From Candidatus Poseidoniaceae archaeon (GTDB lineage Archaea > Thermoplasmatota > Poseidoniia > Poseidoniales > Poseidoniaceae), in the NCBI GenBank assembly GCA_965662895.1, contig CBFIJH010000004.1, forward strand, positions 64,001-128,000: 64,000 nt of DNA, read 5' to 3'. Of this stretch, positions 5,073 through 25,315 are shown piece after piece; the stretch's first letter is position 1, and each line of letters starts with the position of its first letter. The notes beneath the pieces are model-generated. The model had not been told where the DNA came from, did no database searches, and saw only the letters and a program-made list of their open reading frames with translations. Made by a program: the position numbers and the translations under genes.

Positions 5073-6335
5073 TCACAAAGCTCGATGTCCGATGTCCGTC
5101 CGATGGTGGGAGCCTTCGAGCTCAATTTGATGCAATCTCTGATAGGATTGTTCTCGTGCTTCAAGAAGAGAATCGGCAACCGAGGTCACCGATAAGACAC
5201 GGCCTCCGGAAGAGAGCAATGTACCGTTTTCATCTTTGGTTGTACCAGCATGATTCACCCAGGTTTTCGTTGTGTCCAACGAACGGTCTATTCCATGAAT
5301 TGGGCGACCTTTGACTGCTGCTTGTGGATATCCTTCGGAAGCAAGAACGACAGTCAGCGCATGTTTCTGTTTTGATATAACATCCATGCTTTCCAAGCAA
5401 TCGGTCGCGGCATTGAACAAGAGGTCGCCGACATCCGCATCGATAAGGGGCAATGTTACTTGGCATTCAGGATCGCCGAATCGTACGTTAAATTCGACGA
5501 CAGATGGATCTCCATTTGCATCAATCATGAGGCCAACATAGAGAACACCACGGTATGGAATGTGCATCGATGAGAGATAGGAAAACATGGGTTCAACGAT
5601 GCGTTCAACGATTTTTCGATGAATTTCCTCGGTCACGACTGGGGCTGGGCAGTATGCGCCCATGCCGCCAGTGTTGGGCCCGTTGTCCCCATCGAAAGCA
5701 CGCTTGTGGTCTTGACTCGCCGGTAAGCAAACATAACCGGATTTATCCATAACGACCAGCATACTTGCCTCCTCACCAGGGAGAAATTTCTCAAGTAAAA
5801 CGTGTCCATCGGACTTGATGGATTGGTGGATGAACTCTTTCGCTTCACGAAGATCTGAGGTCACGACAACCCCTTTTCCTCCAGCTAGGACATCGCGTTT
5901 GATGACCCATGGTTCATCGGAGTACCGTTCCAGACAAGCATCAATGTCCGTTGTGTCGTCAAGAAGATCGTATTCAGCGGTCGGAACTCCTGCGGATTTC
6001 ATTGCTTGCTTGGCAAAGAGCTTCGAGCCTTCAAGCTCTGCGTGAATTTGTTGTGGCCCAAAGCACGGAATTCCGTTTTCTATGAGCATGTCTGCAAGTC
6101 CATCGCACAACGGCGCTTCAGGACCAACGACCACAAAATCAACGTTCAATCGGTTTGAGAGTTCGACCAAACCGTCAATGTTCGACGCACTGATGTCATG
6201 ATTTGAGCCAAAGGATTCTGTCCCAGCATTCCCTGGTGCCACATGTATCCCCTGAATCGATGGGGATTTTGACAAAGCGAGGCACAATGCATGTTCCCGG
6301 CCACCTCCACCCACGACAAGTACCGTCCGACCCAT
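5073..6335 (-). CDS. purD: Phosphoribosylamine--glycine ligase
   Basis: VLVVGGGGREHAL, APGNAG, VVVGPEAPL, LEGSKLFAK, QDHKRAFDGDNGPNTGGMGAY, EFNVRFGDPECQ, SGGRVL; start trimmed to ATG 6335. Confidence 0.97.
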   Translation of the reverse strand: MGRTVLVVGGGGREHALCLALSKSPSIQGIHVAPGNAGTESFGSNHDISASNIDGLVELSNRLNVDFVVVGPEAPLCDGLADMLIENGIPCFGPQQIHAELEGSKLFAKQAMKSAGVPTAEYDLLDDTTDIDACLERYSDEPWVIKRDVLAGGKGVVVTSDLREAKEFIHQSIKSDGHVLLEKFLPGEEASMLVVMDKSGYVCLPASQDHKRAFDGDNGPNTGGMGAYCPAPVVTEEIHRKIVERIVEPMFSYLSSMHIPYRGVLYVGLMIDANGDPSVVEFNVRFGDPECQVTLPLIDADVGDLLFNAATDCLESMDVISKQKHALTVVLASEGYPQAAVKGRPIHGIDRSLDTTKTWVNHAGTTKDENGTLLSSGGRVLSVTSVADSLLEAREQSYQRLHQIELEGSHHRTDIGHRAL

Positions 6336-6426
6336 ACACGTGGCTACAGCATTGGGCTGATAATTCAACCGCTTTGGTCTTCAGTGGACAACAGTCTTCA
6401 TGTGCTTCGTGTGCTTCGTGAGACGC

Positions 6427-7129: not shown

Positions 7130-8878
7130 ATGCGAACCGCATCCTTCCTAGCCTTCATTCTGATTACATCGATTGCAGTAACGGTCCCAGTTACTGCATC
7201 GCCTCCCGCTCAAGGAGGTAGCGAAACCATTACCGACACTGTCTCATGGACCGAAGATGGAGATTTTGATGGAGAAGTCATTGTAAAAAGCGGGGGTGAA
7301 CTTCACTGGTCGGGGGACATCTCAGTCAAGCAAAATTCTCACGTTCGCATCGAGGAGGGTGGAACCTTGCACCTTGATTCGGCGATGCTTGTTGGTGAAA
7401 ATGCGGCATCAACGCTGCTCATCTATGATGGGAGTGAGATTGTAATCGACGAAAACATAGCAGACTCGTCAGCAACAATGACCTTGTTCTTCAACATTGA
7501 CGTCCCAGAAACGGCATTCCTTAATCTCACAATCGACGATGTTACAACTGGAGAGATTACTGGAGACAGTGCATCATTCACAGTCGATTTGTCACAAGCG
7601 GTCGATATTGTTGTCGAGCATTATTACCCACTGTATTTGGGGATTACACACGTCGAACTTTTCCATTCCAACGCTGAATTACGAACCATCAATGCGGATG
7701 AGCTTCAACAAACCGGAGGCAACCTCATTTGGAACCAAGCGTCGTTCAAAATCGAAAACCATGGCACGCTCATTATCGATGCCTCGACAATTCTTGGTGC
7801 GAACATCACGTGTGACGGTGCATGCTCAGTCCTCAACTCAGATCTGCACGGTAGTGGACCCATTCATGTCACCAATGGAAATCACATCGATGTCATTGAA
7901 TCAACAATGCTTGGTTCCCGCACCGATGAGGACATTATTTTGCATGATCAGGCAACCATTGAGTACACGAATTCATCGGGGACTGGTGGATACACGGATG
8001 CATGGATTCGACTTCTCTCAAAGCGAGAATTGTCCATCAATGCTCCAACTGCTACAGTTGTTGCTACCGGAATTGGTTACGGAGGAAACACGATTAACAC
8101 CATCATCAATGGTGACCCGAACGATTCCAGCACGTGGGTGGTTGACATCGGAACAAACGAACATAAGCGAATTGTTGAATGGCTCGATGGCAGTGGAGTC
8201 TACGGAGAGGAATCTGGCACCATCAAAGTCACCGTTGAAACCAACTGGGGGAATTTTGTTGCCGATACCACAGCACCACGCTTGTCAAGCGCAGCGATTG
8301 ATATTGAATATCCGACATTGAACATCGACAAAATCGAACCTGAAGCTGTTACTGCAGACACTGGACGGTCCCATGGAGTGATGGTTACCGTCTCCAATAC
8401 TGGAACGATTGCAGTTGATCCGAACGTTCGCTGCTATGTTGATGACGTGGAAGCAGATACCACGGCGAGTACTGCGAATTGGGCGGTCGAACCAGGTCAA
8501 ACAAAGGATGTTCCAATCACGTGGTATCATAATTCCGATGGAGCTGTTCAATTGACCTGCAAGTTCCTTTACCCGGATGTTCTTGAACCAGTTCAAAGCC
8601 TCATCGCAAACGAACAAGGAACAACATCAGGCGAGGTGTCATGGACGACGGCAGAAGAGGTTGAGGAATTACCAATCGTGCTTTATGGAGCCATCATCCT
8701 ATTGGTGGTCGTTCTTGCAGCAGCGATTGGTCTACGCGCAAGCAAGGAAATTTCGAAAGATTACATTGCTGAAGAGACGCATGTTGAACAAGAGGATCGC
8801 ATCGAAGAGGATGTCACCGACGAGCCTACAGAAGAATGGCTCGATGCTGAAGGCAACCCGATTATTTCAAACGAATAG
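7130..8878 (+). CDS. Secreted acidic surface protein with beta-rich N-region, CARDB-like domain and C-terminal TM anchor
   Basis: Signal peptide; VTVSNTG...V..YVD...VEPGQTKDVPITW resembles CARDB; TM LPIVLYGAIILLVVVLAAAIGL followed by an acidic tail. Confidence 0.7.
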   Translation: MRTASFLAFILITSIAVTVPVTASPPAQGGSETITDTVSWTEDGDFDGEVIVKSGGELHWSGDISVKQNSHVRIEEGGTLHLDSAMLVGENAASTLLIYDGSEIVIDENIADSSATMTLFFNIDVPETAFLNLTIDDVTTGEITGDSASFTVDLSQAVDIVVEHYYPLYLGITHVELFHSNAELRTINADELQQTGGNLIWNQASFKIENHGTLIIDASTILGANITCDGACSVLNSDLHGSGPIHVTNGNHIDVIESTMLGSRTDEDIILHDQATIEYTNSSGTGGYTDAWIRLLSKRELSINAPTATVVATGIGYGGNTINTIINGDPNDSSTWVVDIGTNEHKRIVEWLDGSGVYGEESGTIKVTVETNWGNFVADTTAPRLSSAAIDIEYPTLNIDKIEPEAVTADTGRSHGVMVTVSNTGTIAVDPNVRCYVDDVEADTTASTANWAVEPGQTKDVPITWYHNSDGAVQLTCKFLYPDVLEPVQSLIANEQGTTSGEVSWTTAEEVEELPIVLYGAIILLVVVLAAAIGLRASKEISKDYIAEETHVEQEDRIEEDVTDEPTEEWLDAEGNPIISNE

Positions 8879-8884
8879 TTGTGC

Positions 8885-10123
8885 CTAGCAGGTGTTCATA
8901 TCCCACGGGCCCTCTTTGTTTGCTTCAAAGTCAAGATCCCAGGAAACATCGTCTTGGATGAGAACCAAATCATCACCAGAACTCAATGAATTTGTGATGG
9001 TTACTTGGAAGGTATAACAATCATCTCCATCGTAGAATGTATCCAAGTCAAGGTACTCGGTTCCAACTTGATCCGTCGCAGGACCAGGCATCAAAAACCA
9101 GCCGTTCACGCTAACACTTGAATCGCCTCGACAGGATGTCGCAGTCGTTCCTGAAACTTCGATGTATGGGAATCCATTTTGGGCAGAGGGACAACCTTGT
9201 GAACTGGATTGCCCATAAACGACGGTGTTGCCTCGCTTGATGACCATCTCAAGCGTGTAATCACCTTCCACCCAAATCCCATTTGCGTCGGTGTGTCCTC
9301 CGCCATTTTCGTGCGTGTGTGAAGTTGGTAGCAAACCAGCCATCATTTCAACAACAATTCCATCGATTTCGGTAGAAGTATCACCGTTGCTGGTCTCTGT
9401 TTTTGTTTTGGGCGTAATCTTCACTCCTGAATCAAGAACTTCTCTTGTCATGAATTCAGGATTAATATCGATGGTCTGTGTGGTATCCCCACTGGTAACT
9501 GAAATCTGATACTCGATTGCAGGAGTGGTTGGGCAACTTCCCGAGTTGCATTGCCAAGCATTACCAACAAAAATTTCCGATATAGCAACCGTAAATCGAG
9601 CTGATTCAGCGTTGAGTTCTTTGCTCTGTGACCATTTCTCAACGCCATCAGCGGTGATGACTGCATCAACAGAACTGGCAGAACCGATAACACGGAAGGA
9701 AATCTCATCGGAGTCTTCTTTTAATTCGAGATCACGAATACCAAAGGATCCACTATCAGGCATAATCATTGAAACACCATATGGGCCTGCAGCAAGAAGG
9801 ACTGCAAGTACCGCTGCGCCACCCATCCGCACCGGATTAACGCCTTCTTCAGACATGTTTTGGCCGGCATAGAGTGCACCGATTCCGATTACCAGCACGC
9901 TTAGAACAACAATCAGGCCCCAAGAGCCTCCCTGTAGGGAGAGTAGACCGCCAACAACGATGATTGCCCAACCTATCGAAGTGAGGATTGTTGGGATGTC
10001 CGGTCCATCGTTTGGTTGAACGTTGGATAGTCCGCCGGCAGCTTCTGGCTTGACTTCATGTTCCACAGATTTGGATTGGGCTGTTTCTTCTGCTGCTGTA
10101 GCCTTGCTCAAGAGTCCACTCAT
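8885..10123 (-). CDS. Hypothetical membrane-anchored protein (3 N-terminal TMs, acidic extracellular domain with Cys pairs)
   Basis: 412-aa ORF with hydrophobic segments at about aa 45-120 and a beta-rich acidic remainder. Confidence 0.75.
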   Translation of the reverse strand: MSGLLSKATAAEETAQSKSVEHEVKPEAAGGLSNVQPNDGPDIPTILTSIGWAIIVVGGLLSLQGGSWGLIVVLSVLVIGIGALYAGQNMSEEGVNPVRMGGAAVLAVLLAAGPYGVSMIMPDSGSFGIRDLELKEDSDEISFRVIGSASSVDAVITADGVEKWSQSKELNAESARFTVAISEIFVGNAWQCNSGSCPTTPAIEYQISVTSGDTTQTIDINPEFMTREVLDSGVKITPKTKTETSNGDTSTEIDGIVVEMMAGLLPTSHTHENGGGHTDANGIWVEGDYTLEMVIKRGNTVVYGQSSSQGCPSAQNGFPYIEVSGTTATSCRGDSSVSVNGWFLMPGPATDQVGTEYLDLDTFYDGDDCYTFQVTITNSLSSGDDLVLIQDDVSWDLDFEANKEGPWDMNTC

Positions 10124-10205: not shown

Positions 10206-11153
10206 TTACAGGCCAGGAGCGGCTTCACGCCATTCCTCTTCCTCGTCATCGGCATTGATGAAACGTCGACCGGCGACAGCAGCAGCCAAAGCCACCATGG
10301 AAAGTGCAGGAATGATTTCAAAGCCCGGAAGATAGACTCCACGAACATAGATTGTGATCATTTGTGATTCACGGTCACAGCCACCGTTCTTACAGGAGAA
10401 ATCCGACTCTGCGTAGAAGTCAAGCGTGTGGTACGCATCGCTCCAACCTTGTGTCTTTGGCGTGCGGACTTGAATTCGAACCTTCGCAGGAGCAACCATC
10501 GGCTCAACGTTGACCTTGCTGATTGGGATGTTGATGTTGAATCCTGCATCCTGAAGAGATTCACGGGAGTTTTCAGAGATTCCGACCTTCATGAAATCGA
10601 ATTGGTTTCCGAGGTTGTAAACTTTGAATTCAAAATCCTTGTCGGTCTTTGGCATCAGCTGAACGAACGGTTCGACCGCTTCGACTTGCAAAAGAGCGTA
10701 TTGTGTGATTGATACAATCATGTTTGCACCCGATGTTGCTTGGTTTGCAGGAGGAAGACCTTGTATTTCTTGGACACTGCCTTGGACGACAAGACTACGT
10801 GCTTGCATGGTCATGAATTGTTGTGCACGGACAACGACTTGGAAGTCTTCCTCACTGTTTGCCCCGACGTAAAGATCACCGGGCGCAGCGGCGGCAAGCC
10901 CGTCAGATGTAACAGAAAGGGCAACTTTTTCGATGTACGCCGTCGGGTTTGACGCCGTACAAGTCGTAAAGCCGACCAGTGTTGAACCAGGCTTAACATC
11001 GACCTTTATTTCTGCGGGCTGACACGTAATCGAAATCGCAGCAGTTGGTACTTGTGCCTGTGCAGGAACCGCAACGAGTAGCAAAGAAGCAAGGTAAATC
11101 ACAAGGACTGTAAAGGTACTCTTTCGTGTGGACATCGTGCTCACTAACTTCAT
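10206..11153 (-). CDS. Choice-of-anchor T-like surface protein with PGF-CTERM-type sorting signal
   Basis: Signal peptide ending AQA; C-terminal LPGFE + TM + GRR. Start may be the ATG near 11135 (MSTRK). Confidence 0.7.
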   Translation of the reverse strand: MKLVSTMSTRKSTFTVLVIYLASLLLVAVPAQAQVPTAAISITCQPAEIKVDVKPGSTLVGFTTCTASNPTAYIEKVALSVTSDGLAAAAPGDLYVGANSEEDFQVVVRAQQFMTMQARSLVVQGSVQEIQGLPPANQATSGANMIVSITQYALLQVEAVEPFVQLMPKTDKDFEFKVYNLGNQFDFMKVGISENSRESLQDAGFNINIPISKVNVEPMVAPAKVRIQVRTPKTQGWSDAYHTLDFYAESDFSCKNGGCDRESQMITIYVRGVYLPGFEIIPALSMVALAAAVAGRRFINADDEEEEWREAAPGL

Positions 11154-11311: not shown

Positions 11312-12619
11312 TCATGAGTTTGCCGAATCAAACATTGCCAGAGAGGATTGGGAAGGTTTGGTTTTGGAACGTACCAATGCTTCGCATGCATCGCGAATTT
11401 GTTCGGGGACGAAAACAAGAATGCGTTCATCCGTTTGTGTTAGTGATCGGATGAGTGGAGAATGCTCTGCAGCATCACGGCCATCTTCGAGAATGATGCC
11501 TTGTTCATAAGGCATGTATCCACGCTTACGTATCGATGCCGTGATGAGGTCATGTTCCGCATCGAAGCCTTCCTTGCGAAGAACTTCAGCAACTTCATAT
11601 TTCACGACTTGAAACATCTCAGAGGTCAAGGATGAAATGCGCAGAGATTTGTGATAATCTCTTCGGGCTAGTAAGCGGGAAGCAAAACCGGACAACACTT
11701 GATCTTCATGGTTAGCAAAGCGTCCGATTGCAACTTTGATGTGCGAATCATGCAACGAGGCGTATTGCTCTGGAGTCAGCGATTGATTAGTTAGCATGTG
11801 CTGTATTTCTTCCTCGACCTCAAGTTGCCCAAGGGACACGAGTTCTTTTGCCCGAGAAAGCATCCGAACAAGGTAGGATTGCGTCAGCATGTTGACTTTG
11901 TGAAAGTAGACTTGATTGTACATGTGGTATCGGGTAACCAGGTAGGCCTCAATGGCCGGTAAGCCCCATGATTTAACGTACAGTCGGCCATCGTCGTTGA
12001 CGCGCAATGCCCTGATGACTCGGGCACTGTCAAACCCACCTATTTGTGCACCGGTATTGGCTTGGTCACGAATCATGTAATCCATGCGATCCACATCGAG
12101 CTGACTGCTAATAATTTCTTTGAGAAATGGAGCGATGGGTTCACCGTTGCATTCCAGTTGACCATCGAGAAGAGCAAAAAGACGTTGTTTACGTTCGACG
12201 CCGAGGACATCCTTGAGAACTTTCCCGATTTCGGAATCCTCGCTTTCAAGAAGAATCCTACCCCAGTGTTCATGAGAATGAAACGTCGCAAAAACCTCTG
12301 GTGTTTCCAAGAGGTGAGAATAGGGAGGGTGACCAATGTCGTGGAGAAGAGCACCAAGTTGTACAAGTTCTGCATCTGCATTGGATAAAAGACCCGGTTG
12401 GACTTCTTGAATCGAGGAAGTTAACTCACATGCGAGATGATATGCACCCAATGAGTGTGCGAAACGGGTGTGCGTAGCTGACGGGAAGACGAATTCGCAG
12501 GTCGAAAGTTGTTGGATGTTTCTTAATCGTTGAAACTCTTGGGTGTCAATGATGCGTGCGTGATGGGCCGGGACCAAGATGTCCCGATGAATTTCATCGC
12601 GAATCACACGGTCTCGCAT
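11312..12619 (-). CDS. HD-domain phosphohydrolase, SAMHD1/dNTP triphosphohydrolase-like
   Basis: IRDEIH, IIDTQEFQRLRNIQQL, ATHTRFAHSLG, ALLHDIGHPPYSH, SQLDVDRMDY, RYHMYNQVYFHK; start trimmed to ATG 12619. Confidence 0.9.
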   Translation of the reverse strand: MRDRVIRDEIHRDILVPAHHARIIDTQEFQRLRNIQQLSTCEFVFPSATHTRFAHSLGAYHLACELTSSIQEVQPGLLSNADAELVQLGALLHDIGHPPYSHLLETPEVFATFHSHEHWGRILLESEDSEIGKVLKDVLGVERKQRLFALLDGQLECNGEPIAPFLKEIISSQLDVDRMDYMIRDQANTGAQIGGFDSARVIRALRVNDDGRLYVKSWGLPAIEAYLVTRYHMYNQVYFHKVNMLTQSYLVRMLSRAKELVSLGQLEVEEEIQHMLTNQSLTPEQYASLHDSHIKVAIGRFANHEDQVLSGFASRLLARRDYHKSLRISSLTSEMFQVVKYEVAEVLRKEGFDAEHDLITASIRKRGYMPYEQGIILEDGRDAAEHSPLIRSLTQTDERILVFVPEQIRDACEALVRSKTKPSQSSLAMFDSANS

Positions 12620-12710
12620 AGTAAATGCTGTCAATGCATCGCATTTCAAGGCATCTCCTACCAACGAGGCCGAGGAAAAGGATATTCTCTCTAGAGGTTT
12701 ACGACGAATC

Positions 12711-14453
12711 ATGGCAGAAGGTCTCAAAGGCTTCCTTGCTCGACTGTCGACCGATGATCCCGAAACCAACGGTCCAAGATTATGGGTCATGTTTGCAATT
12801 TCCTTGTTTCTTGTTGCGACGCTCAACTGGTACGCAATGGTCCGGGAACCTTCCGTTGTCGACGTTGATGAGCTAACGGATTACGTCAATGAGGTCGTCA
12901 AGGTCGAAGGACAGCTTATCTCTTGGGTAGAAGATCCATACAATTCGGGCGACGACCGTCTCGACGCAATCATTGACGATGGCACTGGTGTCGTCGAACT
13001 TCGATGGTACCGTCCAGCGGAGCTGCCACCCATCGGCACGAATGTTACCGTCATTGGTGATGTCATCGAGTACGAAGGAAGGATGTGGCTTCAAGCGCTC
13101 GGTGCAGGAGCGATGAATTGGGACCAAGATGACATCCCAGATGCACCATTACTTTCAATTTCGGATGTTGCTCTCGAACCTGAGGCATATGCAGGTGAAG
13201 TGATTCAACTCACTGGGTTCCTTTCTGAATCAATTGCACCGGATGTGTCGTTCAACAGCGCATACCTCGGCGACCATCCTACCTACGGAAATTCAGAACA
13301 CCAGATGCACATGATCATGCATTCATCGACAGGTGAATGGATTGAATCAGGGTCGAAAGTCACCGTACAAGGAATCCTGTCTTACCAACAACGCGACCTT
13401 CGGTGGAGCATACACGTTCAAGGTCCTGAAATTCTTCTGGATCGAAATCATCCGGTTGAAATCCCATTGTTGGACTGGGCCGGCCAATCCGCATGGATGT
13501 ACCAATCTGGAAGTACCGTCGATGTCGCTGGTGTTCTTTCCATCGACGAGGGCGATTGGTGGCTAACCGGTTCTGCAGGCTCTCCGCTTTGTGTCTTGCC
13601 AAGTGACGATGATCGAGACAACGCTGAGCAATGGAGTGGACTTGCCATACAAATGCGAGGACGTTTGGTCTGGAATACGGCGATTTCTTCCTGGTGTTTG
13701 GATAAAGGTGGTTCAATGAACGAGGCATTAACTGCGACATCGAGCATCGATGACTTGTTGTTGCTTCTGAGCGCAAACCCGAGTGAAGCCCTTCAAGACT
13801 CGAACAAGCGGTATGTCGTTTCGGCCTACATGAAATACGCTCTGGAACCCAGTGTCGAAGACGAGGGCGCATACTTCGTCGATTCACCAGGCTACACACC
13901 GGGTTGGACGAGCATCGCCGTAACAATCCCGGGGCCAAGGTCTTCTTGGCTCGAAGCTGGACAGGAAATTGTCGCCAATGTTTCCGTTGCGTGGGATGAC
14001 GAAAACATGCGGGTAGAATTGCTTGTTCACGAATATTCAGAGGGACAAAAGGCCAATCCGATGAATCTTCTTTGGTCCGATGGTGCAACGAACTGGGGGT
14101 ACGACAAAAACAAGATTGTGCGAATCAATGGACTCGCTACAGAGGATAACGGAACGTGGTACCTTTCCGAGCCTGGCAGCGACAAGCGCATCCTCTTGCA
14201 GGCCGTGAACAATTGCATCGGATTGGACGAATTGCACGTTGGCACGGCGATGACATGGGAAGGTCGTCTGCGACAAGCAGAGGATGCAAATTCGTTGACA
14301 ATGGTCTACACATTAAACGACGCAGATGTCGATGATAACGACAATGATGGATTAAGCGACGCACTTGAATCAGCATTTGGTACAAGTTCCAACACGGAAG
14401 ATACGGATGGCGATGGTACGAGCGATCGTCAAGAATACATCGAACAATCCTAG
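12711..14453 (+). CDS. Membrane-anchored multi-OB-fold protein with C-terminal thrombospondin type-3-like Ca-binding repeats
   Basis: N-terminal TM; VVKVEG...IIDDGTGVVELRWY...IGTNVTVIGDVIEYEG is a classic OB pattern, with further repeats (GEVIQLTG, GSTVDVAG, NKIVRING); ends DNDNDGLSD...DTDGDGTSD. Confidence 0.75.
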   Translation: MAEGLKGFLARLSTDDPETNGPRLWVMFAISLFLVATLNWYAMVREPSVVDVDELTDYVNEVVKVEGQLISWVEDPYNSGDDRLDAIIDDGTGVVELRWYRPAELPPIGTNVTVIGDVIEYEGRMWLQALGAGAMNWDQDDIPDAPLLSISDVALEPEAYAGEVIQLTGFLSESIAPDVSFNSAYLGDHPTYGNSEHQMHMIMHSSTGEWIESGSKVTVQGILSYQQRDLRWSIHVQGPEILLDRNHPVEIPLLDWAGQSAWMYQSGSTVDVAGVLSIDEGDWWLTGSAGSPLCVLPSDDDRDNAEQWSGLAIQMRGRLVWNTAISSWCLDKGGSMNEALTATSSIDDLLLLLSANPSEALQDSNKRYVVSAYMKYALEPSVEDEGAYFVDSPGYTPGWTSIAVTIPGPRSSWLEAGQEIVANVSVAWDDENMRVELLVHEYSEGQKANPMNLLWSDGATNWGYDKNKIVRINGLATEDNGTWYLSEPGSDKRILLQAVNNCIGLDELHVGTAMTWEGRLRQAEDANSLTMVYTLNDADVDDNDNDGLSDALESAFGTSSNTEDTDGDGTSDRQEYIEQS

Positions 14454-14458
14454 GTGAT

Positions 14459-15964
14459 TTGATGATCGAAGCCTACTTCCATGAACTCTGGTGGCTCTTG
14501 GGCGCCTTGTTCTTTGGAGTCATGCTTGGTTCGCTCACAGGACTCATTCCAGGTTTTCACGTCAACAATGTTGCATTGATTCTCCTTGCTGTTTCTCCAG
14601 GATTGCTGGAATTGGGCATACCCCTATCAGCCGTCGCAGCGATTATTGTATCAACGGGAACCGTTCACACATTTTTGAATTACATTCCCTCTGCGCTCAT
14701 CGGCGCACCTGATGGAGATACAGCGTTATCGTTACTTCCAGGGCATCGGATGTTGCTTGCTGGTAATGCTGCACGTGGTGTTGCATGGTCAGCTCGAGGA
14801 TCCCAACTTGGTCTGTTTCTATCTTTGCCCCTTATCGTTGTTGCTCGAATTGCCTTCGGCCCTGAGCTCAATTGGTACGACGGACTTCGAGACTGGTTGC
14901 CCGTTATTCTTCTCGTGATATCCCTTCTGCTTCTCGCAACCGAAACCACCCGTCTTGATTGGCCGAAATGGGTACAAAAGGTAACGGGAAAGCGTCTCGG
15001 AAAGGACAGTCGGCTTGCTGGTTTCTTTGCTGCAACCGTCTTCTTCTTGCTTGCTGGATTGTACGGATGGGCTGTGTTCGAACTCCCGGTCGATAGCCCA
15101 GTAGGTATGCCATCGCCTTCCTTGTTGCTTCCGAGTTTAGCGGGTTTGTTTGGTATCGCGAACCTTCTCGACATCTATGCGACCACCAGCCATCTCCCTC
15201 CACAAAAAGAGAACTGGGATTTGCCCCCGGTTAAACCGCTCATTGCGCCGTGTTTCTGGTCAGCCGTTGCCGGTGCAAGTATGGGTGTATTGCCCGGTAT
15301 GACCGCATCCCAAGCAACCGTTCTCGTCATGGGTGGCCGCAATGTTGCGGCAAAGGTGCAAGGAAAGGAAGGATACGGTATGGACTGGGAAACCCGACGC
15401 TTAACGGAACTCAGCGATGAGGAATTGTTGGAAATTGCCGTTGCAGAAGCAGAGGATGGATACGAAGGTCCGCAAACGAAGCAAGATTTGGAAGTCATTG
15501 CGATTCTTTCAGCCGTAAACACAGCTGTCACAGTCATGGTCCTTGGATTCTTGTACATCATTGGTCGATCTCGTTCTGGTGCAACACTTGCCTTGAAAAT
15601 GATGTACCCGATTGAAACGTGGAACTCAACGCAGCCCACTGCCGACTTTGTGCGACTTCTCGCTGTAACGCTTGCAGCCGGAATCATGGCGATGCCGATC
15701 ATGAAAATTGTTGGGAAAGGCATGCTCAGGCTCCATGCTGCTATTCCTTTGCAATCAATGGTCATGGGCGTCATCATTTTCGTCACAGCATTGGTATGGC
15801 TTTCGACAGGATTCGTCGGCATTGGCGTCCTCATTGTCGGAACCATTCTCGGACTTATGCCTCCACGTATCGGGATTCGACGAAGCCACGGAATGGGAAT
15901 TATCCTCGTTCCCATTATGATTTACACCTTCGCACAGATGGCAGACAGCTTCGGTTTCATCTGA
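14459..15964 (+). CDS. TctA/DUF112-family (tripartite tricarboxylate transporter permease-like) membrane protein
   Basis: GSLTGLIPGFHVNN, HTFLNYIPSALIGAPD..TALSLLPGHRMLLAG, LPSLAGLFGIANL, GVLPG, GRSRSG motifs of the archaeal DUF112 family. Confidence 0.88.
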   Translation: MMIEAYFHELWWLLGALFFGVMLGSLTGLIPGFHVNNVALILLAVSPGLLELGIPLSAVAAIIVSTGTVHTFLNYIPSALIGAPDGDTALSLLPGHRMLLAGNAARGVAWSARGSQLGLFLSLPLIVVARIAFGPELNWYDGLRDWLPVILLVISLLLLATETTRLDWPKWVQKVTGKRLGKDSRLAGFFAATVFFLLAGLYGWAVFELPVDSPVGMPSPSLLLPSLAGLFGIANLLDIYATTSHLPPQKENWDLPPVKPLIAPCFWSAVAGASMGVLPGMTASQATVLVMGGRNVAAKVQGKEGYGMDWETRRLTELSDEELLEIAVAEAEDGYEGPQTKQDLEVIAILSAVNTAVTVMVLGFLYIIGRSRSGATLALKMMYPIETWNSTQPTADFVRLLAVTLAAGIMAMPIMKIVGKGMLRLHAAIPLQSMVMGVIIFVTALVWLSTGFVGIGVLIVGTILGLMPPRIGIRRSHGMGIILVPIMIYTFAQMADSFGFI

Positions 15965-19000: not shown

Positions 19001-20921
19001 AACAACGGTGACGCCGCTAATCGCTCCCGAACACGGGCTGATGGACATTCTGAATTGGATTGATGGCGCACAATCCTCCCTTCACGTCCACCTTTACATC
19101 CTGCAATCGAGCGAAATCGCTCAAGCATTGGTCGATGCGAAGAATCGTGGAGTCGATGTCGTTGTTGTTCTCAATGAACCTGAGGATTGGTGGAATTCCA
19201 ACGATAAACAAGCACAGCAGGCGTATGCGCATTCGTTGAAACAATCGGGCATTGATGTTCATTGGTTTGGCGGCTCTGGTGACGACCCCTATCTCTACCT
19301 CCATTCAAAAGTCGCAGTGAGGGACGATTCTTCCGTGTGGATTGGTTCCGGGAACTGGAAACCATCCTCCTTGCCGTACGACGGAGATCGAGGCAATCGT
19401 GATTGGGGACTTCTGATTGAGAGCGTCCAACTTGCCAACATCGTTCGATCGAATATGGCGTACGACGAGACGTCCAATTACGTCCTCGATGTATCGTCCA
19501 CTGCCCCGACGAATTCCTATGTCATTCCCGAGGCACAAGAGATCAATCAAGCAACAGCGCAAGCCCTTACTGGGACGTTTAGCGGCCAGTTGCTGACGTG
19601 CCCGGATGACTGTGTTGAAGGTTTAACCGATCTGATTGTATCCGCTGATGACGAGATCTTGCTCTCATTGCAATACCTCGATTTGGATTGGAAATGGGGC
19701 TGGGGCGAGAATCCTTTGATTTCTGCCCTTGAACAAGCTGCAATCGATGGTGTTGCTATACGTCTCATCATCAACGGGGCTTATCTCGACGAGGACATTC
19801 AGGATGTTGTCGATCAAATCAACAACGATTGGAACATCACCAATGGTTGGGATGCATCAGCCGTCATCATGAGCGAAGATGACGATGTCATGAAGTTGCA
19901 CAACAAAGGAGCCATTGTTGATGGTGAGTCCGTTCTCATTTCAAGCATCAACTGGGGCGATTCAGCGATGGTTCGAAATCGTGAAATGGGCCTCATTGTT
20001 ACCTCATCCGAAGTCGCTGCTCCGTTCCTTGAATCGTGGTACGCTGATTGGAACCGTTTGGACAATGTCACGGATACGGACAACGATGGGATGCCAGACA
20101 TCTTTGAAGTGAACAATGGATTGAACCGGACTGTTTCGGTCCACAATGGTGTTTTGGAAGCGGACATGGACAACGATAACGATGGATTGTCCAATCTTGA
20201 TGAGTACATGCTCGGAGGTCATCCACTGAATCCTGATACGGACGGTGATTGTATTCCTGATGCTGTTGAAGTAAGTTGGGCACAAACAACCGCTCTTGAT
20301 CCAAGCGTTGAAGACGTTTCGCCAGAAGATGCAATCAATCGCGCAGATGCTGATGGTGACGGTACAAATGAGGCGGATGCATTGGGTTGTGATCTAGGTG
20401 GAATTGACCCTATTGATACAAACGACGACCAGACAAACGATACGAGCACAGATGATGACAACGATGGCGTGTTGGATGTGAATGATGAATGTCCAGATAC
20501 GCCTGCAAACACACCGACCGATGTGAGTGGTTGTTCTTCTGAACAACGCAATCAGAAAGCAGGTGATGCGGCTGGTGAGGCTGACGAAGGATTCGGAGAA
20601 AATTTCATGCTGATTCTAATGCTTGGAGGCCTACTCTTACTTATCGGGGCTGTGTACGGCATTGTTCAATCTCGCAAAGAAAATGAGGCAACTAAGGATT
20701 GGGTCACCGAACAACATATTGACGACGTTGTTGGTACGGAAGCTCAATGGGAGCAGCCTGTTCTTGATGGAAGAGGTGAAGAAACAGATTCAGGACTTGC
20801 GAAGGAACTTGATCGCTTCCCCGGTTGGACCGAGGAGATGCTGCAGCAATACTTGGACCATGGCTGGACGCTGGACCAGTTGGAGGAATACTACCAACAA
20901 CAGGTCGCAGAACAGGGATAA
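16032..20921 (+). CDS. Large surface enzyme: multiple lamin-tail domains + phospholipase D (2x HKD) + TSP3-like repeats + TM anchor
   Basis: Repeated (I/L)NEV(M/F)...GEW(L/V)ELYN.G...VD...W lamin-tail motifs; HSKVAVRD...GSGNW (19302-19325) and HNKGAIVD...SSINW (19899-19922); DTDNDGMPD-type repeats; C-terminal TM. Confidence 0.9.
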   Translation: MRFETIFLISLMLLVPLTPLVEPAEATSARAQPCGGSVCINEVMPNPNGYDDAAWPNGEWLELYNGGTSSVDVRNWYFSNKASRILTLNSASIVGYNASNPSTYTIAPGDYMIVARNASTNFYVANSNDFMTLYDSSNGWVDEATWNSTSSGVSLEEDPSNAYNDWIPTSNPTPGSVNTGGGGGTGGPTYAQSDVIINEVMADPWPSYDNATWPSGEWVELYNNGTSAIDLAGYWLQDVAGNMITLNENHLIGASTDASSFLIHPQETRIVAVNSTTNSGVLNNGQETLRLYLANGSIGHEVLWSSNQPGFSLEASSTGTMWQYSTYPTPNATNAPKIEQITSAGDVVLNEIFPVSTMDGTAAPDGEWVEFYNGGIVDVDLYGWSIIDGMGNVTFLDPGSIVVNSSQGSTMIHADERRLVEFTGDTRLWDNYNHLVIRDSTGAIVDMGHYTTNYGPDISLLRGQNYHDPWTPSITPSPGQPEPTPTPTTGDVKITEVLPDAVGSDSASYPNGEWIEIRNMGTEEVDVAGWRFSAENRNLILHQYNMPSKSDTVLQPGETALIALNGTSQFYLKHTTPDQIFLNDGNGVVVHSAQWTHTLEGGSLINNTESHAGAGPNGANAPSSSTTWGVDDWINSAWATPGEENPKWPEYTESENVLVTEIATSCDLPTFQPAADWIEVYNDGESEVNLSRWILQTDYSSNPLMGRQFIDASMVWDSTSTDVLLQPMERMVVELEHDIFGPDLDDVSAMNLLNPDGDLVLTIAPPVSHLSTTCATYGYNSTNAEWLEFLWPTPGSPEPDATMMASLDDIKFSSIMWDGVSSISTEMEFFELTNIGTDTAILNGWSIRRIASDGTSFESQITNLEIDATSSVKLSNDVTALELFEGGEILDMSAAMENPIYLLDSGMALQLIHPTGVVADTIVYKNGPVESEGWSGVALSEPVSGIDNLILYRGDGCGILTDTNQSTDWHQRWGRLGASDFCAESGFDDATTVTPLIAPEHGLMDILNWIDGAQSSLHVHLYILQSSEIAQALVDAKNRGVDVVVVLNEPEDWWNSNDKQAQQAYAHSLKQSGIDVHWFGGSGDDPYLYLHSKVAVRDDSSVWIGSGNWKPSSLPYDGDRGNRDWGLLIESVQLANIVRSNMAYDETSNYVLDVSSTAPTNSYVIPEAQEINQATAQALTGTFSGQLLTCPDDCVEGLTDLIVSADDEILLSLQYLDLDWKWGWGENPLISALEQAAIDGVAIRLIINGAYLDEDIQDVVDQINNDWNITNGWDASAVIMSEDDDVMKLHNKGAIVDGESVLISSINWGDSAMVRNREMGLIVTSSEVAAPFLESWYADWNRLDNVTDTDNDGMPDIFEVNNGLNRTVSVHNGVLEADMDNDNDGLSNLDEYMLGGHPLNPDTDGDCIPDAVEVSWAQTTALDPSVEDVSPEDAINRADADGDGTNEADALGCDLGGIDPIDTNDDQTNDTSTDDDNDGVLDVNDECPDTPANTPTDVSGCSSEQRNQKAGDAAGEADEGFGENFMLILMLGGLLLLIGAVYGIVQSRKENEATKDWVTEQHIDDVVGTEAQWEQPVLDGRGEETDSGLAKELDRFPGWTEEMLQQYLDHGWTLDQLEEYYQQQVAEQG

Positions 20922-20961
20922 GTCGCGTAACCTTGACAAAGGACCACACCCTAGGTATTCC

Positions 20962-21702
20962 ATGGCCTACAACTCGTCGAACCCTGTCTTCCAACCAGCC
21001 TTTTGGAATTCGATTCAAGGCAATGACCGAATGACCCTTGAAGGGACACTGCAAAAAACCGGCATTTTGTTTGGTATGGCAACAATCAGTGCTGTCGGAT
21101 CGATTGCACTCGGATTCATCATGCCGTCCCTCCTTTATCCACTAATGATCTTGGGTATGTTTGGCACGATTGGCATGGGGGTATTCTTGATGTTTGCTCG
21201 CCCGGCTGAACCAACAGGATTTGTGCTTGCTTACGCAACGCTCGAAGGTCTGTTTATCGGACCTCTTACGCTCGTGTTCGAGGTGTTCTATCCAGGTATA
21301 GCGATTCAGGCGGGGCTTGCAACCTTCGGGGTTGTTGCTTCTATGCTCACCATCTACTCTCTAGGTATTCTACGTCCAACACCTACATTCAACAAGATTG
21401 TCTTCACCCTAACCGGTTCAATCATGCTGATGTACATGATTAACATATTCCTCTACTTCCTGACTCCCTGGACGATACCCTTCCTTCACTCCTCGGGACC
21501 GATTGGAATTGGGATTAGTGTATTCATCATTATCGTTGCGTCAATGATGTTGATTTCCAACTTCGGCATGATTCATGCTGGCGTTCGAATGGGGGCACCG
21601 AAGAAGCAAGAATGGTGGGGCGCTTTCGGAATCATGGTGACGGTAATTTGGTTGTATTTCGAAATGCTTCGCTTGATTGCCAAACTCCGCGACTCAAGGT
21701 GA
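20962..21702 (+). CDS. Bax inhibitor-1/YccA family membrane protein
   Basis: SSNPVF, RMTLEGTLQKT, YATLEGLFIG, YPGIAIQA, GAPKKQEWWGAFGIMVTVIWLYFEMLRL; start trimmed to ATG 20962. Confidence 0.9.
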   Translation: MAYNSSNPVFQPAFWNSIQGNDRMTLEGTLQKTGILFGMATISAVGSIALGFIMPSLLYPLMILGMFGTIGMGVFLMFARPAEPTGFVLAYATLEGLFIGPLTLVFEVFYPGIAIQAGLATFGVVASMLTIYSLGILRPTPTFNKIVFTLTGSIMLMYMINIFLYFLTPWTIPFLHSSGPIGIGISVFIIIVASMMLISNFGMIHAGVRMGAPKKQEWWGAFGIMVTVIWLYFEMLRLIAKLRDSR

Positions 21703-21706
21703 TACG

Positions 21707-22669
21707 TTGGCACGTCCTCTGCCCATCGCTGATCTCAATGATTTTCTATCCGGTGATGAACAACGAATTCAAGCGTTCATCCAAACGGTCGGAGATTCGC
21801 TTGCAGACATTGGGTTCTTTGCCCTGACCAATCACGGTATTGATCTTGAATTAATCGAGGCCACCTACGATGTGGCTGAATCATTCTTTTTGCTTGAGGA
21901 ATCTGTGAAGCATCAATATGCGAAACCAGAAATTTCTCACCAACGTGGTTACACTGCTTTTGGTGTTGAACATGCAAAAGACAATCCTGCTCCAGACCTC
22001 AAAGAATTCTGGCAGACTGGAAGAGGTCAGCAAGGAAGTGAAACAGATACAAAATATCCGATGAATGTCTGGCCGAACCGGCACATCCCCGGTTTCGAGG
22101 AAAAAGTTGACAACTTGTACAACCGAATGGAGGAAATCTCCAATCAATTGCTTTCCGCTTGCAGCATCTACCTTGGCAAAGCGTCCACTTGGCTTCCTTC
22201 AATGGCTGAAAGAGGGAACACAATCATGCGAATAATCCACTATCCGCCTCTTGATTCGAACACGCCTGAAGGTGCGGTTCGCTCAGCGGCTCACGAGGAC
22301 ATCAATTTCATCACCTTATTGATGACTGCAACTGCTGCAGGCCTTCAGGTCATGGATCATGATGGGACATGGATTGATGTTGTAGGAAATCATGAACAAA
22401 TCATTGTTGATTCTGGAGATATGATTCAGAATTTGACCAACGGTTTGTTCAAGTCGACGACGCATCGGGTTGTTAACCCTGGCGACCCAACACAACGACG
22501 TTTCTCGATGCCCATGTTTGTTCACCCACGAAACGAGATTGATCTGACGCCACTACCCGAATTTATCGACCGAACCAGTGGTTCGGCAGATTTCCCATCA
22601 ATTACTGCTGGTGAGTATCTTCATCAACGACTTGCTGAAATTGGATTGGTATCAATTGACGAGGGTTGA
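21707..22669 (+). CDS. Isopenicillin N synthase-family 2OG-Fe(II) dioxygenase
   Basis: IGFFALTNHGI, HYPP, AAHEDINFITLL (HxD), STTHRVV, RFSMPMF (RxS); TTG start at 21707 preceded by AGGTGA. Confidence 0.9.
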   Translation: MARPLPIADLNDFLSGDEQRIQAFIQTVGDSLADIGFFALTNHGIDLELIEATYDVAESFFLLEESVKHQYAKPEISHQRGYTAFGVEHAKDNPAPDLKEFWQTGRGQQGSETDTKYPMNVWPNRHIPGFEEKVDNLYNRMEEISNQLLSACSIYLGKASTWLPSMAERGNTIMRIIHYPPLDSNTPEGAVRSAAHEDINFITLLMTATAAGLQVMDHDGTWIDVVGNHEQIIVDSGDMIQNLTNGLFKSTTHRVVNPGDPTQRRFSMPMFVHPRNEIDLTPLPEFIDRTSGSADFPSITAGEYLHQRLAEIGLVSIDEG

Positions 22670-22674
22670 AGTCA

Positions 22675-23946
22675 ATGCATATTCCAAATTTGCTTGCCAA
22701 AAAACGGGACGGGCATGGGCTCGAGCAACGAGAAATCGAGTGGTTTATCCAACATCTTCATGAGATTCCGAATGAACAAATTGGTGCATTTTTGATGGCC
22801 TGCCAAATCAATGGTTTGAATGCTGAGGAAACAACATACCTCACCAAGGCCATGCTCGACCAAGGAAAACGCCTTTCGAATCGAGACGGGGCTATCGACA
22901 AACACTCAACAGGTGGCGTTGGTGATAAAATGAGCCTCATCCTTGCTCCTGCATTGCGTGCCTGTGGAGCAATCGTGCCAATGTTGGCGGGAAGAGGATT
23001 GGCGCATACTGGAGGGACCATCGACAAACTGGAGGCGATTCCAGGCTTCAACACGGGACTAAGCATTGAACAAATGGAACACAATCCGTGTTTTATTTCG
23101 CGCCAAACCGATGAGATTGCTCCAACCGATTCCATCCTTTACGCAATTCGTGATGTTACAGCAACGGTTCCGTGTATTGGTTTGATCACTGCATCCATTC
23201 TTTCAAAGAAGGCTGCGGAAGGAATCCAAGCCCTCGTGCTCGATGTCAAATATGGCCGAGCTGCATTTATGCAACATTCAGATGATGCAAGAAAACTTGC
23301 AAAATCGATGATTCGTGTTGGCACTGAACTCGGAATTGAAGTTACGGCTCAACTTACAGAAATGGATCATCCAATCGGCAACATGCTTGGAAACAGTCAT
23401 GAAATTGTTGAATCGATTCAGTGTCTCAAAGGCCAAGGACCTGTTGATACCATGGAATTGGTGCATGCTCAAGCAAATGCATTGGGTTTTGAAGTTTCAG
23501 AAGTCATCGCAAACGGTTCAGCGCTTGAAGAATTCAGGCGAATGCTGGAACGTCAAGATGTTGACGCCCTTACCGCTCAGAAACTCATCGATGAGCCTTG
23601 GAGCGTGTTGGAGCGTGCACCCCAGCAATACGCAATACTCTCCGAAAAATCCGGATATGTAGCGGATATGGATGCCCTAGCAATCGGTCAAGTTCTTTGC
23701 GAAGCAGGCGCTGGTCGCTCGATGCAAGGTGATGACATCGACCATGGAGTAGGCATTGAAATTCATCATCGCATCGGTTCAAAGATCGAAGAAGATGATG
23801 TTATTCTAACGCTCGATGGCCCATTTGGCCTCGATGTTCACCTCCTTCAGCGATTGAAAGATTCGATTACAATCTCCGATTATCAAGTTGGTGTTGCTTC
23901 AAGGATTCTTGAAAGTCTAACAATTGACGATGGCTCAACGACTTGA
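22675..23946 (+). CDS. deoA: Thymidine / pyrimidine-nucleoside phosphorylase
   Basis: KKRDG, DKHSTGGVGDK, MLAGRGLAHTGGTIDKLEAIPGF, LYAIRDVTATV, ASILSKK, VLDVKYGRAAFM. Confidence 0.92.
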   Translation: MHIPNLLAKKRDGHGLEQREIEWFIQHLHEIPNEQIGAFLMACQINGLNAEETTYLTKAMLDQGKRLSNRDGAIDKHSTGGVGDKMSLILAPALRACGAIVPMLAGRGLAHTGGTIDKLEAIPGFNTGLSIEQMEHNPCFISRQTDEIAPTDSILYAIRDVTATVPCIGLITASILSKKAAEGIQALVLDVKYGRAAFMQHSDDARKLAKSMIRVGTELGIEVTAQLTEMDHPIGNMLGNSHEIVESIQCLKGQGPVDTMELVHAQANALGFEVSEVIANGSALEEFRRMLERQDVDALTAQKLIDEPWSVLERAPQQYAILSEKSGYVADMDALAIGQVLCEAGAGRSMQGDDIDHGVGIEIHHRIGSKIEEDDVILTLDGPFGLDVHLLQRLKDSITISDYQVGVASRILESLTIDDGSTT

Positions 23947-24367: not shown

Positions 24368-25315
24368 TTATTCCCACTCGATGGTTCCGGGTGGTTTGTG
24401 TGTAATATCGTACACGACTCGATTGACAGCACCCTTGACCGTGTTGGTAATACGCGTACTAATTTTCTGGAGAATATGATGTGGTATCTCTGAGTACCGT
24501 GCCGACATTCCATCCATACTTCGGACTGCTCGAACAACAATGGTTTCGCCATAGGCACGGACGTCACCATGAACACCAACGGATCGAACGGGTAACAGTG
24601 CAGCAAAATATTGCCATGGCAATTCCATTTCACCTGCTTCAGCTCCTGCTTCAAATTCTTCCTCAACAATGGCACATGCCTCTCGAACCACTTCAACACG
24701 TTCTGGCGTGAGATCACCCAATGTTCGGACAGCCAGACCTGGTCCAGGGAATGGTTGGCGCTCTGCTACGACAATATCGAGTTCTCGGGCAAGTTCTCGA
24801 ACTTCGTCTTTGTACAATTCACGAAGAGGTTCAACGACTTCAAGCGTCATATCTTCGGGCAATCCACCAACGTTGTGATGAGATTTTATCGTGTCGCGAA
24901 CACCACCCCCAGATTCAATCCAGTCAGGAGCAATTGTACCTTGAACGAGGTATTTTGCACCGCATTTTTTCTGTTCGTCTTCAAAGATACGAATGAACAA
25001 TTCACCAATGACTTTCCGCTTTTGCTCAGGTTCCGTAACGCCTTTCAATGCCTCAAAGTATCGATCTGCAGCCTTCACAGTGATCAGATTGATGCCCTGC
25101 TCGGAAAGCATCGCTTCAATTTCCTCAGTTTCATTTTTTCTCATGAAGCCAGTATCAACATACACACAGTGAAGGAGATCCCCGACTGCTTTACTGGCAA
25201 GAACTGCGGCAACTGTCGAGTCAACACCGCCTGAGCATGCAATGATTGCAACATCATCGATTGTTGCTTTCAATTGCTGAATCGATTCCTCGATAAATTC
25301 AGGCGCATCAAACAT
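24368..25315 (-). CDS. guaAB: GMP synthase subunit B (ATP pyrophosphatase)
   Basis: ACSGGVDSTVAA, VDTGFMRK, PEQKRKVIG, QGTIAPDWIES, IKSHHNVGGLP, RQPFPGPGLAVR, KPPGTIEWE; no GATase domain. Confidence 0.96.
   Translation of the reverse strand: MFDAPEFIEESIQQLKATIDDVAIIACSGGVDSTVAAVLASKAVGDLLHCVYVDTGFMRKNETEEIEAMLSEQGINLITVKAADRYFEALKGVTEPEQKRKVIGELFIRIFEDEQKKCGAKYLVQGTIAPDWIESGGGVRDTIKSHHNVGGLPEDMTLEVVEPLRELYKDEVRELARELDIVVAERQPFPGPGLAVRTLGDLTPERVEVVREACAIVEEEFEAGAEAGEMELPWQYFAALLPVRSVGVHGDVRAYGETIVVRAVRSMDGMSARYSEIPHHILQKISTRITNTVKGAVNRVVYDITHKPPGTIEWE

Follow-up and report, generated by a model that had tools for sequence, protein, structure and literature searches.

In a 64,000-nucleotide stretch of the genome of a Candidatus Poseidoniaceae archaeon, a member of Marine Group IIa (assembly GCA_965662895.1, contig CBFIJH010000004.1, positions 64,001 to 128,000; hereafter the window), a gene for a membrane-anchored protein made of five tandem OB folds lies directly upstream of a gene for a TctA-like (DUF112) permease, and the two are followed by a gene for a giant surface protein that combines lamin-tail domains (LTDs) with two phospholipase D (PLD) domains. 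The pairing of OB and TctA-like genes recurs across the phylum Thermoplasmatota, and their adjacency is more than chance. Judged by domain content, structural models and analogy with a gene pair of Methanococcus, we favour, with some reserve, the reading that the three proteins constitute a surface module that captures, cuts and imports nucleic acid. The source genome (1.86 Mb in 26 contigs) is 92.18% complete, and all absences given below are relative to that completeness.

The original prediction, made from the letters of the window, had placed the permease gene 5 nucleotides after the stop codon of the OB gene, and this order and spacing are exactly what the open reading frames (ORFs) and the junction itself read: TAG (14451-14453), GTGAT, then TTG (14459) and ATG (14462), which leaves 5 nucleotides between the two genes if translation of the permease begins at the TTG and 8 if it begins at the ATG. 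A Shine-Dalgarno-like word, GGTGAT, straddles the stop codon of the OB gene. Because the gap is only 5-8 nucleotides and this word lies across the stop, the arrangement fits translational coupling of the TctA-like gene to the OB gene. An alignment of 30 homologues, in which Met1 and a large part of the N-terminus hardly vary, upholds the start of the OB protein at 12711. Scans for sigma-70 promoters (6 versus 9.6 in shuffled sequences) and for intrinsic terminators (7 versus 7.9) did not rise above the shuffles, both methods being unsuited to archaea.

Among 80 Poseidoniaceae loci, a set of close kin compared by tblastn, the OB gene stands directly upstream of the TctA-like gene in 79; the one miss (L061) starts inside the TctA gene and carries no upstream DNA. 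The giant downstream gene was found in 76 of the 80, the four misses having less than about 85 nucleotides after TctA. The TctA-like protein is the most conserved of the three, with 82-99% identity across the 79 full- or near-full-length loci (L061 being a fragment); identities in the OB protein are 48-96% and in the PLD protein 38-86%.

At the scale of the phylum, the permease family PF01970 was found in 174 of 201 Thermoplasmatota genomes. It occurs in 34 of the 37 Poseidoniales genomes and in none of the three genomes of the sister family f3, of the same class (G028, G185 and G200; 90-97% complete). A phylum sample of 70 loci (30 + 40), made up of 10 loci of Marine Group IIb (MGIIb) and 60 of other Thermoplasmatota, was searched with hidden Markov models (HMMs) derived from three alignments of OB proteins. 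In 49 of the 70 loci these detected an OB gene that borders TctA and runs in the same direction, and two further linked loci (L144 and L147) were recognized by eye. The linkage thus holds in all 10 MGIIb loci and in 41 of the 60 others (39 by HMM, 2 by eye), the rest of these 60 comprising 17 unlinked loci and 2 cut by a contig end. For the first 30 loci the count (21/30) is circular, 19 of them having served to build two of the HMMs; in the independent set (L113-L152) the HMMs recovered 28 linked loci out of 40, to which the 2 recognized by eye are added. The conserved DUF112-OB linkage on which the original prediction hung is therefore widespread.

In a quick maximum-likelihood tree (IQ-TREE) of 71 TctA proteins, that of the window falls within a Poseidoniales clade whose members are all linked to an OB gene (11/11; Shimodaira-Hasegawa-like approximate likelihood-ratio test, SH-aLRT, 100). 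The unlinked state is limited to few clades, with 6 changes on the tree versus a mean of 15.3 after shuffling and none of 500 shuffles as low, a statistic that shows clustering only, kin sharing their labels. The OB proteins themselves could be compared by hhalign. The Poseidoniales alignment matched a type with four OB units with a probability of 97.4% (E 1.1e-11, 366 columns) and a type with two units with 97.0% (E 9.8e-11, 185 columns), and both alignments begin at the transmembrane (TM) helix. By this profile comparison the upstream OB proteins are homologous, despite having 2, 3, 4 or 5 OB units.

The OB family is a large one, since an exhaustive search with the 2-OB profile returned 2023 cluster representatives at E<=0.001. 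A word-indexed search with the same profile gave 58 matches, for which the source names given are Thermoplasmatota or Thermoplasmata, and a look-up of 20 chosen cluster representatives returned only Thermoplasmata/Thermoplasmatota names. One 2-OB neighbour from Thermoplasmatota scores above the PF01336 cut-off (32.9 versus 27 bits) and somewhat below that of DUF4131 (27 versus 31.6 bits), the model for the N-terminal TM and OB part of ComEC; an Atlas look-up pointed, by way of leads, to OB clusters of archaea and to a single Chloroflexota cluster that has both PF01336 and DUF4131. Three distant matches of the 2-OB profile (P0308, P0312 and P0266) may hint at fused OB-nuclease forms: in two of them the OB units are preceded by a lamin-tail-like word at the start of the protein, and the third has, by eye, an exonuclease-like N-terminal region. 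The OB protein of the window has at least 472 homologues and, among the 120 listed, the source names given are Poseidoniales or Euryarchaeota.

This 580-residue protein is predicted to have a short cytoplasmic N-terminus and a single hydrophobic helix (about residues 24-44), followed by five OB units and two TSP3 repeats, in agreement with the earlier description of one N-terminal TM segment, several OB-like units and calcium-binding repeats. An AlphaFold2 (AF2) model from 30 sequences, with a mean predicted local distance difference test score (pLDDT) of 79.1 and a predicted template-modelling score (pTM) of 0.42, shows a helix at residues 20-44 and five beta-barrel units of OB topology with five strands each (DSSP), at residues 47-135, 145-240, 250-333, 346-446 and 451-541; the linker at 334-345 was modelled with low confidence. 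A Foldseek search of the PDB with this model returned 176 matches at E<=0.001 and, among those listed, all 46 are nucleic-acid-binding OB proteins. The best is p204 HIN with double-stranded DNA (E 4.6e-11); others are CST/POT1, bS1, RADX, the Oxytricha TEBP, RPA, LEF-3, Cdc13, AspRS and Teb1. Low TM-scores (here 0.10-0.20) are to be expected from a loosely arranged chain of domains, and the result bears on the class of the modelled OB fold, not on function. The original prediction had allowed that the units might turn out to be BOF/CcmE-like; they resemble nucleic-acid-binding OB proteins instead, BOF being matched in 1 of 30 family members (E 0.045). A Pfam scan of the OB protein itself gave a sub-threshold TSP3 repeat only (PF18884, TSP3_bac; 21.6 bits, cut-off 25), a model that matches 23 of the 30 members with a best E of 6.4e-11. 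The two D-x-D-x-D-G repeats, at residues 542 and 564, end the protein.

The TctA-like protein matches PF01970 with 154.9 bits (cut-off 28.9), in two pieces; a search of the genome with the same family gave 121.6 and 39.6 bits. Its alignment displays invariant polar motifs and a Poseidoniales-specific insert at about residues 300-337. A 722-residue TctA-like protein of one MGIIb locus (L117:3462-5630) carries about 200 inserted residues in the loop that holds the shorter insert of the window protein. The AF2 model is all-helical (pLDDT 79.7, pTM 0.81); with it, Foldseek found no match in the PDB at E<=0.001, and a profile search of PDB sequences found none at E<=1.

The original prediction had cast the OB protein as the receptor of the permease, with nucleic acid as the cargo. 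A co-fold of the TctA-like protein with OB residues 1-245 scored 0.48 (runs of 0.48, 0.45 and 0.52), the best of three controls scoring 0.00. The runs share at least 83% of their contacts and the pLDDT of the partner is at least 72. Of the 157 solved complexes in the benchmark, 116 attained the mark, as against 2 of 215 mismatched pairs, and at scores of 0.60 or less only 18 of the 157 solved complexes passed, together with both passing mismatches. The co-fold thus lends weak support to the contact part of that proposal: it nudges the odds, short of establishing binding.

In bacteria, TctA is the large membrane subunit of TctABC, a tripartite tricarboxylate transporter (TTT), and works with TctC. 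The absence of TctB and TctC from the window was borne out by Pfam scans of its larger ORFs between positions 3 and 31123. Elsewhere in the genome, too, no TctC (PF03401) was matched, the controls matching in 4 of 14 genomes, which agrees with the premise that no TctC is encoded at a distance. For TctB (PF07331) there was one match of 20.2 bits, under the cut-off of 29.1, on contig 9, unlinked and inside a 457-residue frame. The permease of the window therefore shares its Pfam family with the bacterial subunit and differs in its company, the genome having no TctC or credible TctB and the partner being a membrane-anchored OB array. The same genome gave no match to the ComEC Competence domain PF03772 (controls matched in 10 of 14 genomes), to SNase or to DprA; it has one YdjM match, on another contig, and four T2SSE-type ATPases of type-IV-filament systems.

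The third gene was outside the coordinates of the original prediction. Its 1629-residue product has a signal-like hydrophobic N-terminus, lamin-tail domains (PF00932, 238.7 bits in 6 stretches), two HKD/PLD domains (2 stretches of PF13091, PLDc_2, with 125.4 bits) and TSP3-like repeats; towards the C-terminus, a TM helix (residues 1525-1546) is followed by a cytoplasmic tail of about 80 residues. In a motif scan both HxK(x)4D motifs were intact, at residues 1091 and 1290, and four D-x-D-x-D-G repeats (residues 1348-1485) precede the C-terminal helix. The nearest NCBIfam models of the PLD region are DrmC (79.2 bits, cut-off 133) and NucT (53.7 bits, cut-off 297); cardiolipin-synthase models match it weakly, below these scores. 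On domain matches, the protein is classed as PLD-type and nuclease-like, and was not filed as NucT or DrmC because its scores are far below the equivalog cut-offs. PADLOC also returned a DrmC match (75 bits); a DISARM defence reading was dropped, the OB and TctA-like proteins having no PADLOC match and the PLD protein being a surface protein with LTDs and anchors. The only other PADLOC match in the scanned set was a weak dGTPase on the divergent HD gene described below. A lamin-tail domain forms part of the extracellular nuclease ExeM, according to the available part of PMC6085458, and of Haloferax volcanii Hvo_1477, which the accessible text of PMC5118699 cites as a protein of extracellular-DNA metabolism. 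The presence of a nuclease-type neighbour, as its domains suggest it to be, strengthens the DNA reading.

A near-identical TSP3 word is found in the OB protein (DNDNDGLSDALE, 14334-14369) and in the LTD-PLD protein (DNDNDGLSNLDE, 20169-20204); it lies at the membrane-distal tip of the former and in the membrane-proximal stalk of the latter. A calcium-dependent contact of the two proteins through their TSP3 repeats is conceivable from these words.

The association with PLD genes extends outside the family. In all 10 MGIIb loci an LTD-PLD homologue lies downstream of TctA, next to it at 4 loci and behind one other gene at 6. At these 6 loci the intervening gene encodes a membrane-anchored protein of about 950 residues (e.g. 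L116:5095-7950 and L119:3487-6336), for which only a weak match to the CD36 family (30 bits) was found. At a distant locus, L152, the order is OB, OB, TctA, YdjM-like hydrolase and a PLDc_2 protein (48.5 bits) that closes the operon, and because it ends in this way the OB-TctA-PLD association recurs there in a different arrangement. L152 also belongs, with L127, L129 and L151, to a second type of operon, composed of 1-3 OB genes, a divergent TctA and a YdjM-like membrane hydrolase of 377-389 residues. Some OB genes of this type have N-terminal zinc ribbons, and the genomes that contain it may also hold an unlinked TctA copy.

The statement in the original prediction that such a pair had been implicated in natural transformation of Methanococcus proved correct. 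In Methanococcus maripaludis JJ, as the available part of PMC10133366 (Fonseca et al. 2023) describes, MMJJ_13020 (an OB-fold protein with one TM segment) adjoins MMJJ_13030 (TctA-like, 11 TM segments); both genes were hit by transposons, and in-frame deletion of either one abolishes transformation, which complementation restores. The same portion of that report states that the TctA-like homologue is essential in Methanoculleus thermophilus as well, that a secreted thermonuclease, MMJJ_16440, is needed for M. maripaludis transformation, and that archaea have no clear homologues of TctB, TctC or ComEC, and its authors leave the exact role of the pair open (PMC10133366). The window resembles this system, so far as the accessible text describes it, in having an OB gene followed by a TctA-like gene, a single-TM OB protein, no TctB or TctC partner and a putative surface nuclease. 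It differs in that its OB protein is a 580-residue chain of five OB units with TSP3 repeats and its permease carries an insert. Moreover, the Methanococcus nuclease is an unlinked lipoprotein thermonuclease (PMC10133366, in the part available), whereas the nuclease-like protein of the window is a membrane-tethered LTD-PLD giant whose gene follows the pair, with no SNase found in the genome. The interpretation put forward in the original prediction is partly supported: the window pair would be the Marine Group II (MGII) version of an archaeal OB/TctA-like pair, with an OB array grown to five units and with an LTD-PLD enzyme added.

Other systems offer narrower likenesses. As in ComEC, an outward OB fold on a membrane anchor is predicted to be combined with a polytopic membrane protein and a nuclease, and the segment formed by the TM helix and OB1 gives weak DUF4131 matches; unlike ComEC, the genome has no PF03772, DUF4131 stays below its cut-off, and the nuclease would be of the PLD type instead of the metallo-beta-lactamase type. 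The module is thus akin to a disassembled ComEC only by analogy. The PLDc_2 fold with HxK(x)4D motifs is common to Nuc, Helicobacter pylori NucT and DISARM DrmC, NucT and DrmC being the top-scoring named models, and the window protein is distinguished from them by having both PLD halves in one 1629-residue surface chain. With ExeM and Hvo_1477, as far as the available parts of PMC6085458 and PMC5118699 describe them, it shares the joining of an LTD to a nuclease or nuclease-type domain on a secreted or membrane-attached protein; it has six LTDs instead of one, PLD/HKD domains as opposed to an EEP or thermonuclease domain, and a link to an OB/TctA-like pair.

In the model that we favour, the tethered LTD-PLD protein, with its two intact HKD halves facing outward, would nick or cut extracellular DNA. 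The 580-residue anchored OB array would hold the nucleic acid, probably through divalent-cation bridging, and hand it over to the membrane component. The TctA-like protein would then perform the translocation step, the cargo being either a DNA strand or short or mononucleotide products. The outcome could be genetic transformation or the use of DNA as a source of phosphorus, nitrogen and carbon, and we lean towards nucleic-acid import in some form. That MGII archaea run in this way a self-contained, ComEC-independent machine for extracellular DNA, with the five OB folds as a calcium-dependent capture arm, and that the same core is a general archaeal import route across the Thermoplasmatota, is a more tentative extension, which we regard as possible rather than probable.

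A number of observations weigh against nucleic-acid import. With 28 K+R and 92 D+E in 536 residues, the OB ectodomain is at net -64, and each OB unit is at -7 to -13 with a pI of 4.05-4.7; four cytoplasmic proteins encoded in the window are less acidic (pI 4.9-5.8). Such acidity is unusual for a DNA binder, and DNA binding would need divalent-cation bridging or local basic patches. Within the family, PF01336 matches the TM helix and OB1 weakly in 14 of 30 Poseidoniales members and DUF4131 does so in 9 of 30, all below the respective cut-offs (31.6 bits for DUF4131, whose top score is at most 20.7 bits among the 16 members scanned singly). The PLD domains reach no nuclease equivalog cut-off, and the PLD superfamily includes lipid phosphodiesterases. 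The LTD-PLD gene begins 67 nucleotides past the TctA-like gene, a gap that allows it a promoter of its own. Seventeen of the 71 TctA proteins have no linked OB gene, and the window pair is likened to MMJJ_13020/13030 in kind, by architecture and gene order and not by sequence. Finally, no RNA run covering the locus was listed, and DNA of it was found in four runs of one study.

The permease adds to these difficulties. In a VIA wide structure search its model matched barley YS1 best (Z 12.1, 275 aligned residues, root-mean-square deviation 4.7) and, more weakly (Z 5-6.3), INDY, TRAP-M, AbgT/YdaH and ArsB-type carriers; for helical proteins, such Z values may mirror only a common arrangement. 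The model nevertheless suggests that the TctA-like protein resembles a secondary carrier and is unlike a known DNA channel. A carrier-like fold would accommodate a DNA strand no better than it would small anionic products, for instance nucleotides or short oligonucleotides.

These features raise the question whether the cargo is another one altogether. The OB array could be a receptor for an oligosaccharide or other ligand that replaces TctC, the TctA-like protein importing an acidic small molecule (a sugar acid, a carboxylate or a phospho-compound) and the PLD enzyme freeing that compound from a surface polymer or lipid. PF01970 is a carboxylate-carrier family, the modelled fold and the very acidic, Trp-rich ectodomain would be in keeping with this, and so would the weak cardiolipin-synthase matches of the PLD region. 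The 12 invariant Trp residues of the OB alignment would fit the binding of glycans no less than the stacking of bases. Among the 30 OB-family members, CBM_5_12 is matched weakly in 11 (best E 2.2e-4), CBM_4_9 in 2 and CBM9 in 2. But all these matches are sub-threshold, those to CBM_5_12 are confined to some 30 residues in the last part of OB1, and no carbohydrate-binding module appears among the Foldseek matches listed, so that a carbohydrate-binding OB array was not adopted and is kept as a rival. The PLD domains score best against the nuclease-type DrmC and NucT, and LTDs accompany known extracellular nucleases in the available parts of PMC6085458 and PMC5118699. The only genetic data on such pairs, in the portion of PMC10133366 at hand, concern DNA uptake. 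On the whole, we judge a cargo other than nucleic acid to be unlikely.

Alternatively, the pair might serve the biogenesis or maintenance of the envelope or of surface filaments, DNA uptake in the methanogens being lost as a consequence and no DNA being carried in MGII. The near-universal occurrence of PF01970 in the Thermoplasmatota, noted above, is broader than known competence, and the surrounding window is rich in surface proteins and has a giant AglB/STT3 glycosyltransferase. The Methanococcus evidence, as given in the accessible part of PMC10133366, is of lost transformation and not of demonstrated transport. An indirect role of this kind is nonetheless made more improbable still by the repeated, independent link to nuclease-type PLD genes in two distant arrangements, by OB folds of the nucleic-acid class in the Foldseek search, and by the lack of matches to envelope-biogenesis domains in all three proteins. 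As for an ordinary TTT, with TctB and TctC lying in the unassembled 8% of the genome and the OB gene an unrelated neighbour, the incompleteness of the assembly and the TctB-like match on contig 9 leave it barely credible, since the OB-TctA adjacency and coupling are conserved across the phylum, that match is under its cut-off within a 457-residue frame, and archaea have no clear TctB/TctC homologues in the available text of PMC10133366, the TctC search made here being of this one genome.

Features of the OB/TctA-like/LTD-PLD locus, in window coordinates
Feature	Coordinates	Strand	Evidence
Membrane-anchored multi-OB protein, 580 residues	12711..14453	+	ORF, AF2, Foldseek
Predicted N-terminal TM anchor, residues 24-44	12780..12842	+	hydrophobic stretch, AF2 helix 20-44
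Five tandem OB-fold units	12849..14333	+	DSSP elements of AF2 model
Single OB units	OB1 12849-13115; OB2 13143-13430; OB3 13458-13709; OB4 13746-14048; OB5 14061-14333	+	AF2/DSSP
Two TSP3-type, putatively Ca-binding repeats (DNDNDGLSDALE, DTDGDGTSDRQE), distal C-terminus	14334..14450	+	PF18884 sub-threshold, motif scan
Putative coupling junction: stop TAG, GGTGAT word, TTG/ATG start of TctA-like gene	14451..14464	+	sequence
Orphan TctA-like permease, 501 residues, insert at about residues 300-337	14459..15964	+	PF01970
Giant surface LTD-PLD protein (putative enzyme), 1629 residues	16032..20921	+	PF00932, PF13091
Two PLD-type halves: PLD1 19041-19457, PLD2 19623-20030	19041..20030	+	domain ranges, motif scan
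Predicted C-terminal TM anchor of LTD-PLD protein	20604..20669	+	sequence
Divergent dGTPase-like protein with HD domain; Met70 of the long ORF is the probable start	11312..12619	-	PF01966, PF19276

The gene divergent from the OB gene encodes an HD-domain protein with PF01966 and PF19276, which dGTP triphosphohydrolase models match below their cut-offs. Since distant homologues align only from about residues 61-71 of the long ORF, a start at Met70 (12619) is the more likely one, and it leaves a divergent promoter region of 91 nucleotides between the HD and OB genes; a start at Met39 would overlap the OB ATG in a CATG palindrome (12710-12713). The HD gene was found in 76 of the 80 Poseidoniaceae loci and is thus syntenic in the family; its membership of the module is uncertain. 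Downstream, a Bax-inhibitor-1-like gene (20623-21702, +) shares, in its longest ORF, about 300 nucleotides with the 3' end of the PLD gene, but its Pfam match starts from residue 120, so that its true start is probably after 20921. Two genes past the PLD gene lies a thymidine phosphorylase (22666-23946, +; NF004490, 405 bits, cut-off 269), and with purD (5073-6368), the guaA-C gene (24368-25315) and the dGTPase-like HD gene it makes the neighbourhood rich in nucleotide metabolism. These neighbours are compatible with DNA feeding and may be a coincidence. On the other side there is a run of predicted surface proteins (10206-11153, -; 8885-10123, -; 7130-8878, +), one of which belongs to the choice-of-anchor T family (294 bits) and ends in a PGF-like motif and a TM segment, the other two having C-terminal or N-terminal anchors and no family. 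An AglB/STT3-type oligosaccharyltransferase (3-4949, -) of at least 1649 residues runs off the window.

A literature search, whose coverage left out most subscription journals, found no paper linking MGII or Poseidoniales to TctA or to DNA uptake. Marine Group II are among the most abundant planktonic archaea. To our knowledge, the mechanism of DNA import in archaea is an open question, and the OB/TctA-like pair of M. maripaludis is the only genetic handle on it. Such a pair is conserved across a whole phylum and occurs in uncultured ocean plankton, and in the Poseidoniales it is physically joined to a surface enzyme of nuclease type, which provides biochemistry with a compact list of three parts. 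The acidic ectodomain and the carrier-like fold of the TctA-like model are puzzles that could separate the import of a DNA strand from the scavenging of nucleotides. If nucleic-acid import is the true function, MGII would take up extracellular DNA, with a bearing on how phosphorus and nitrogen are cycled in the sea and on gene flow in surface waters, and these archaea would be unrecognised consumers and recipients of the extracellular DNA of the ocean.

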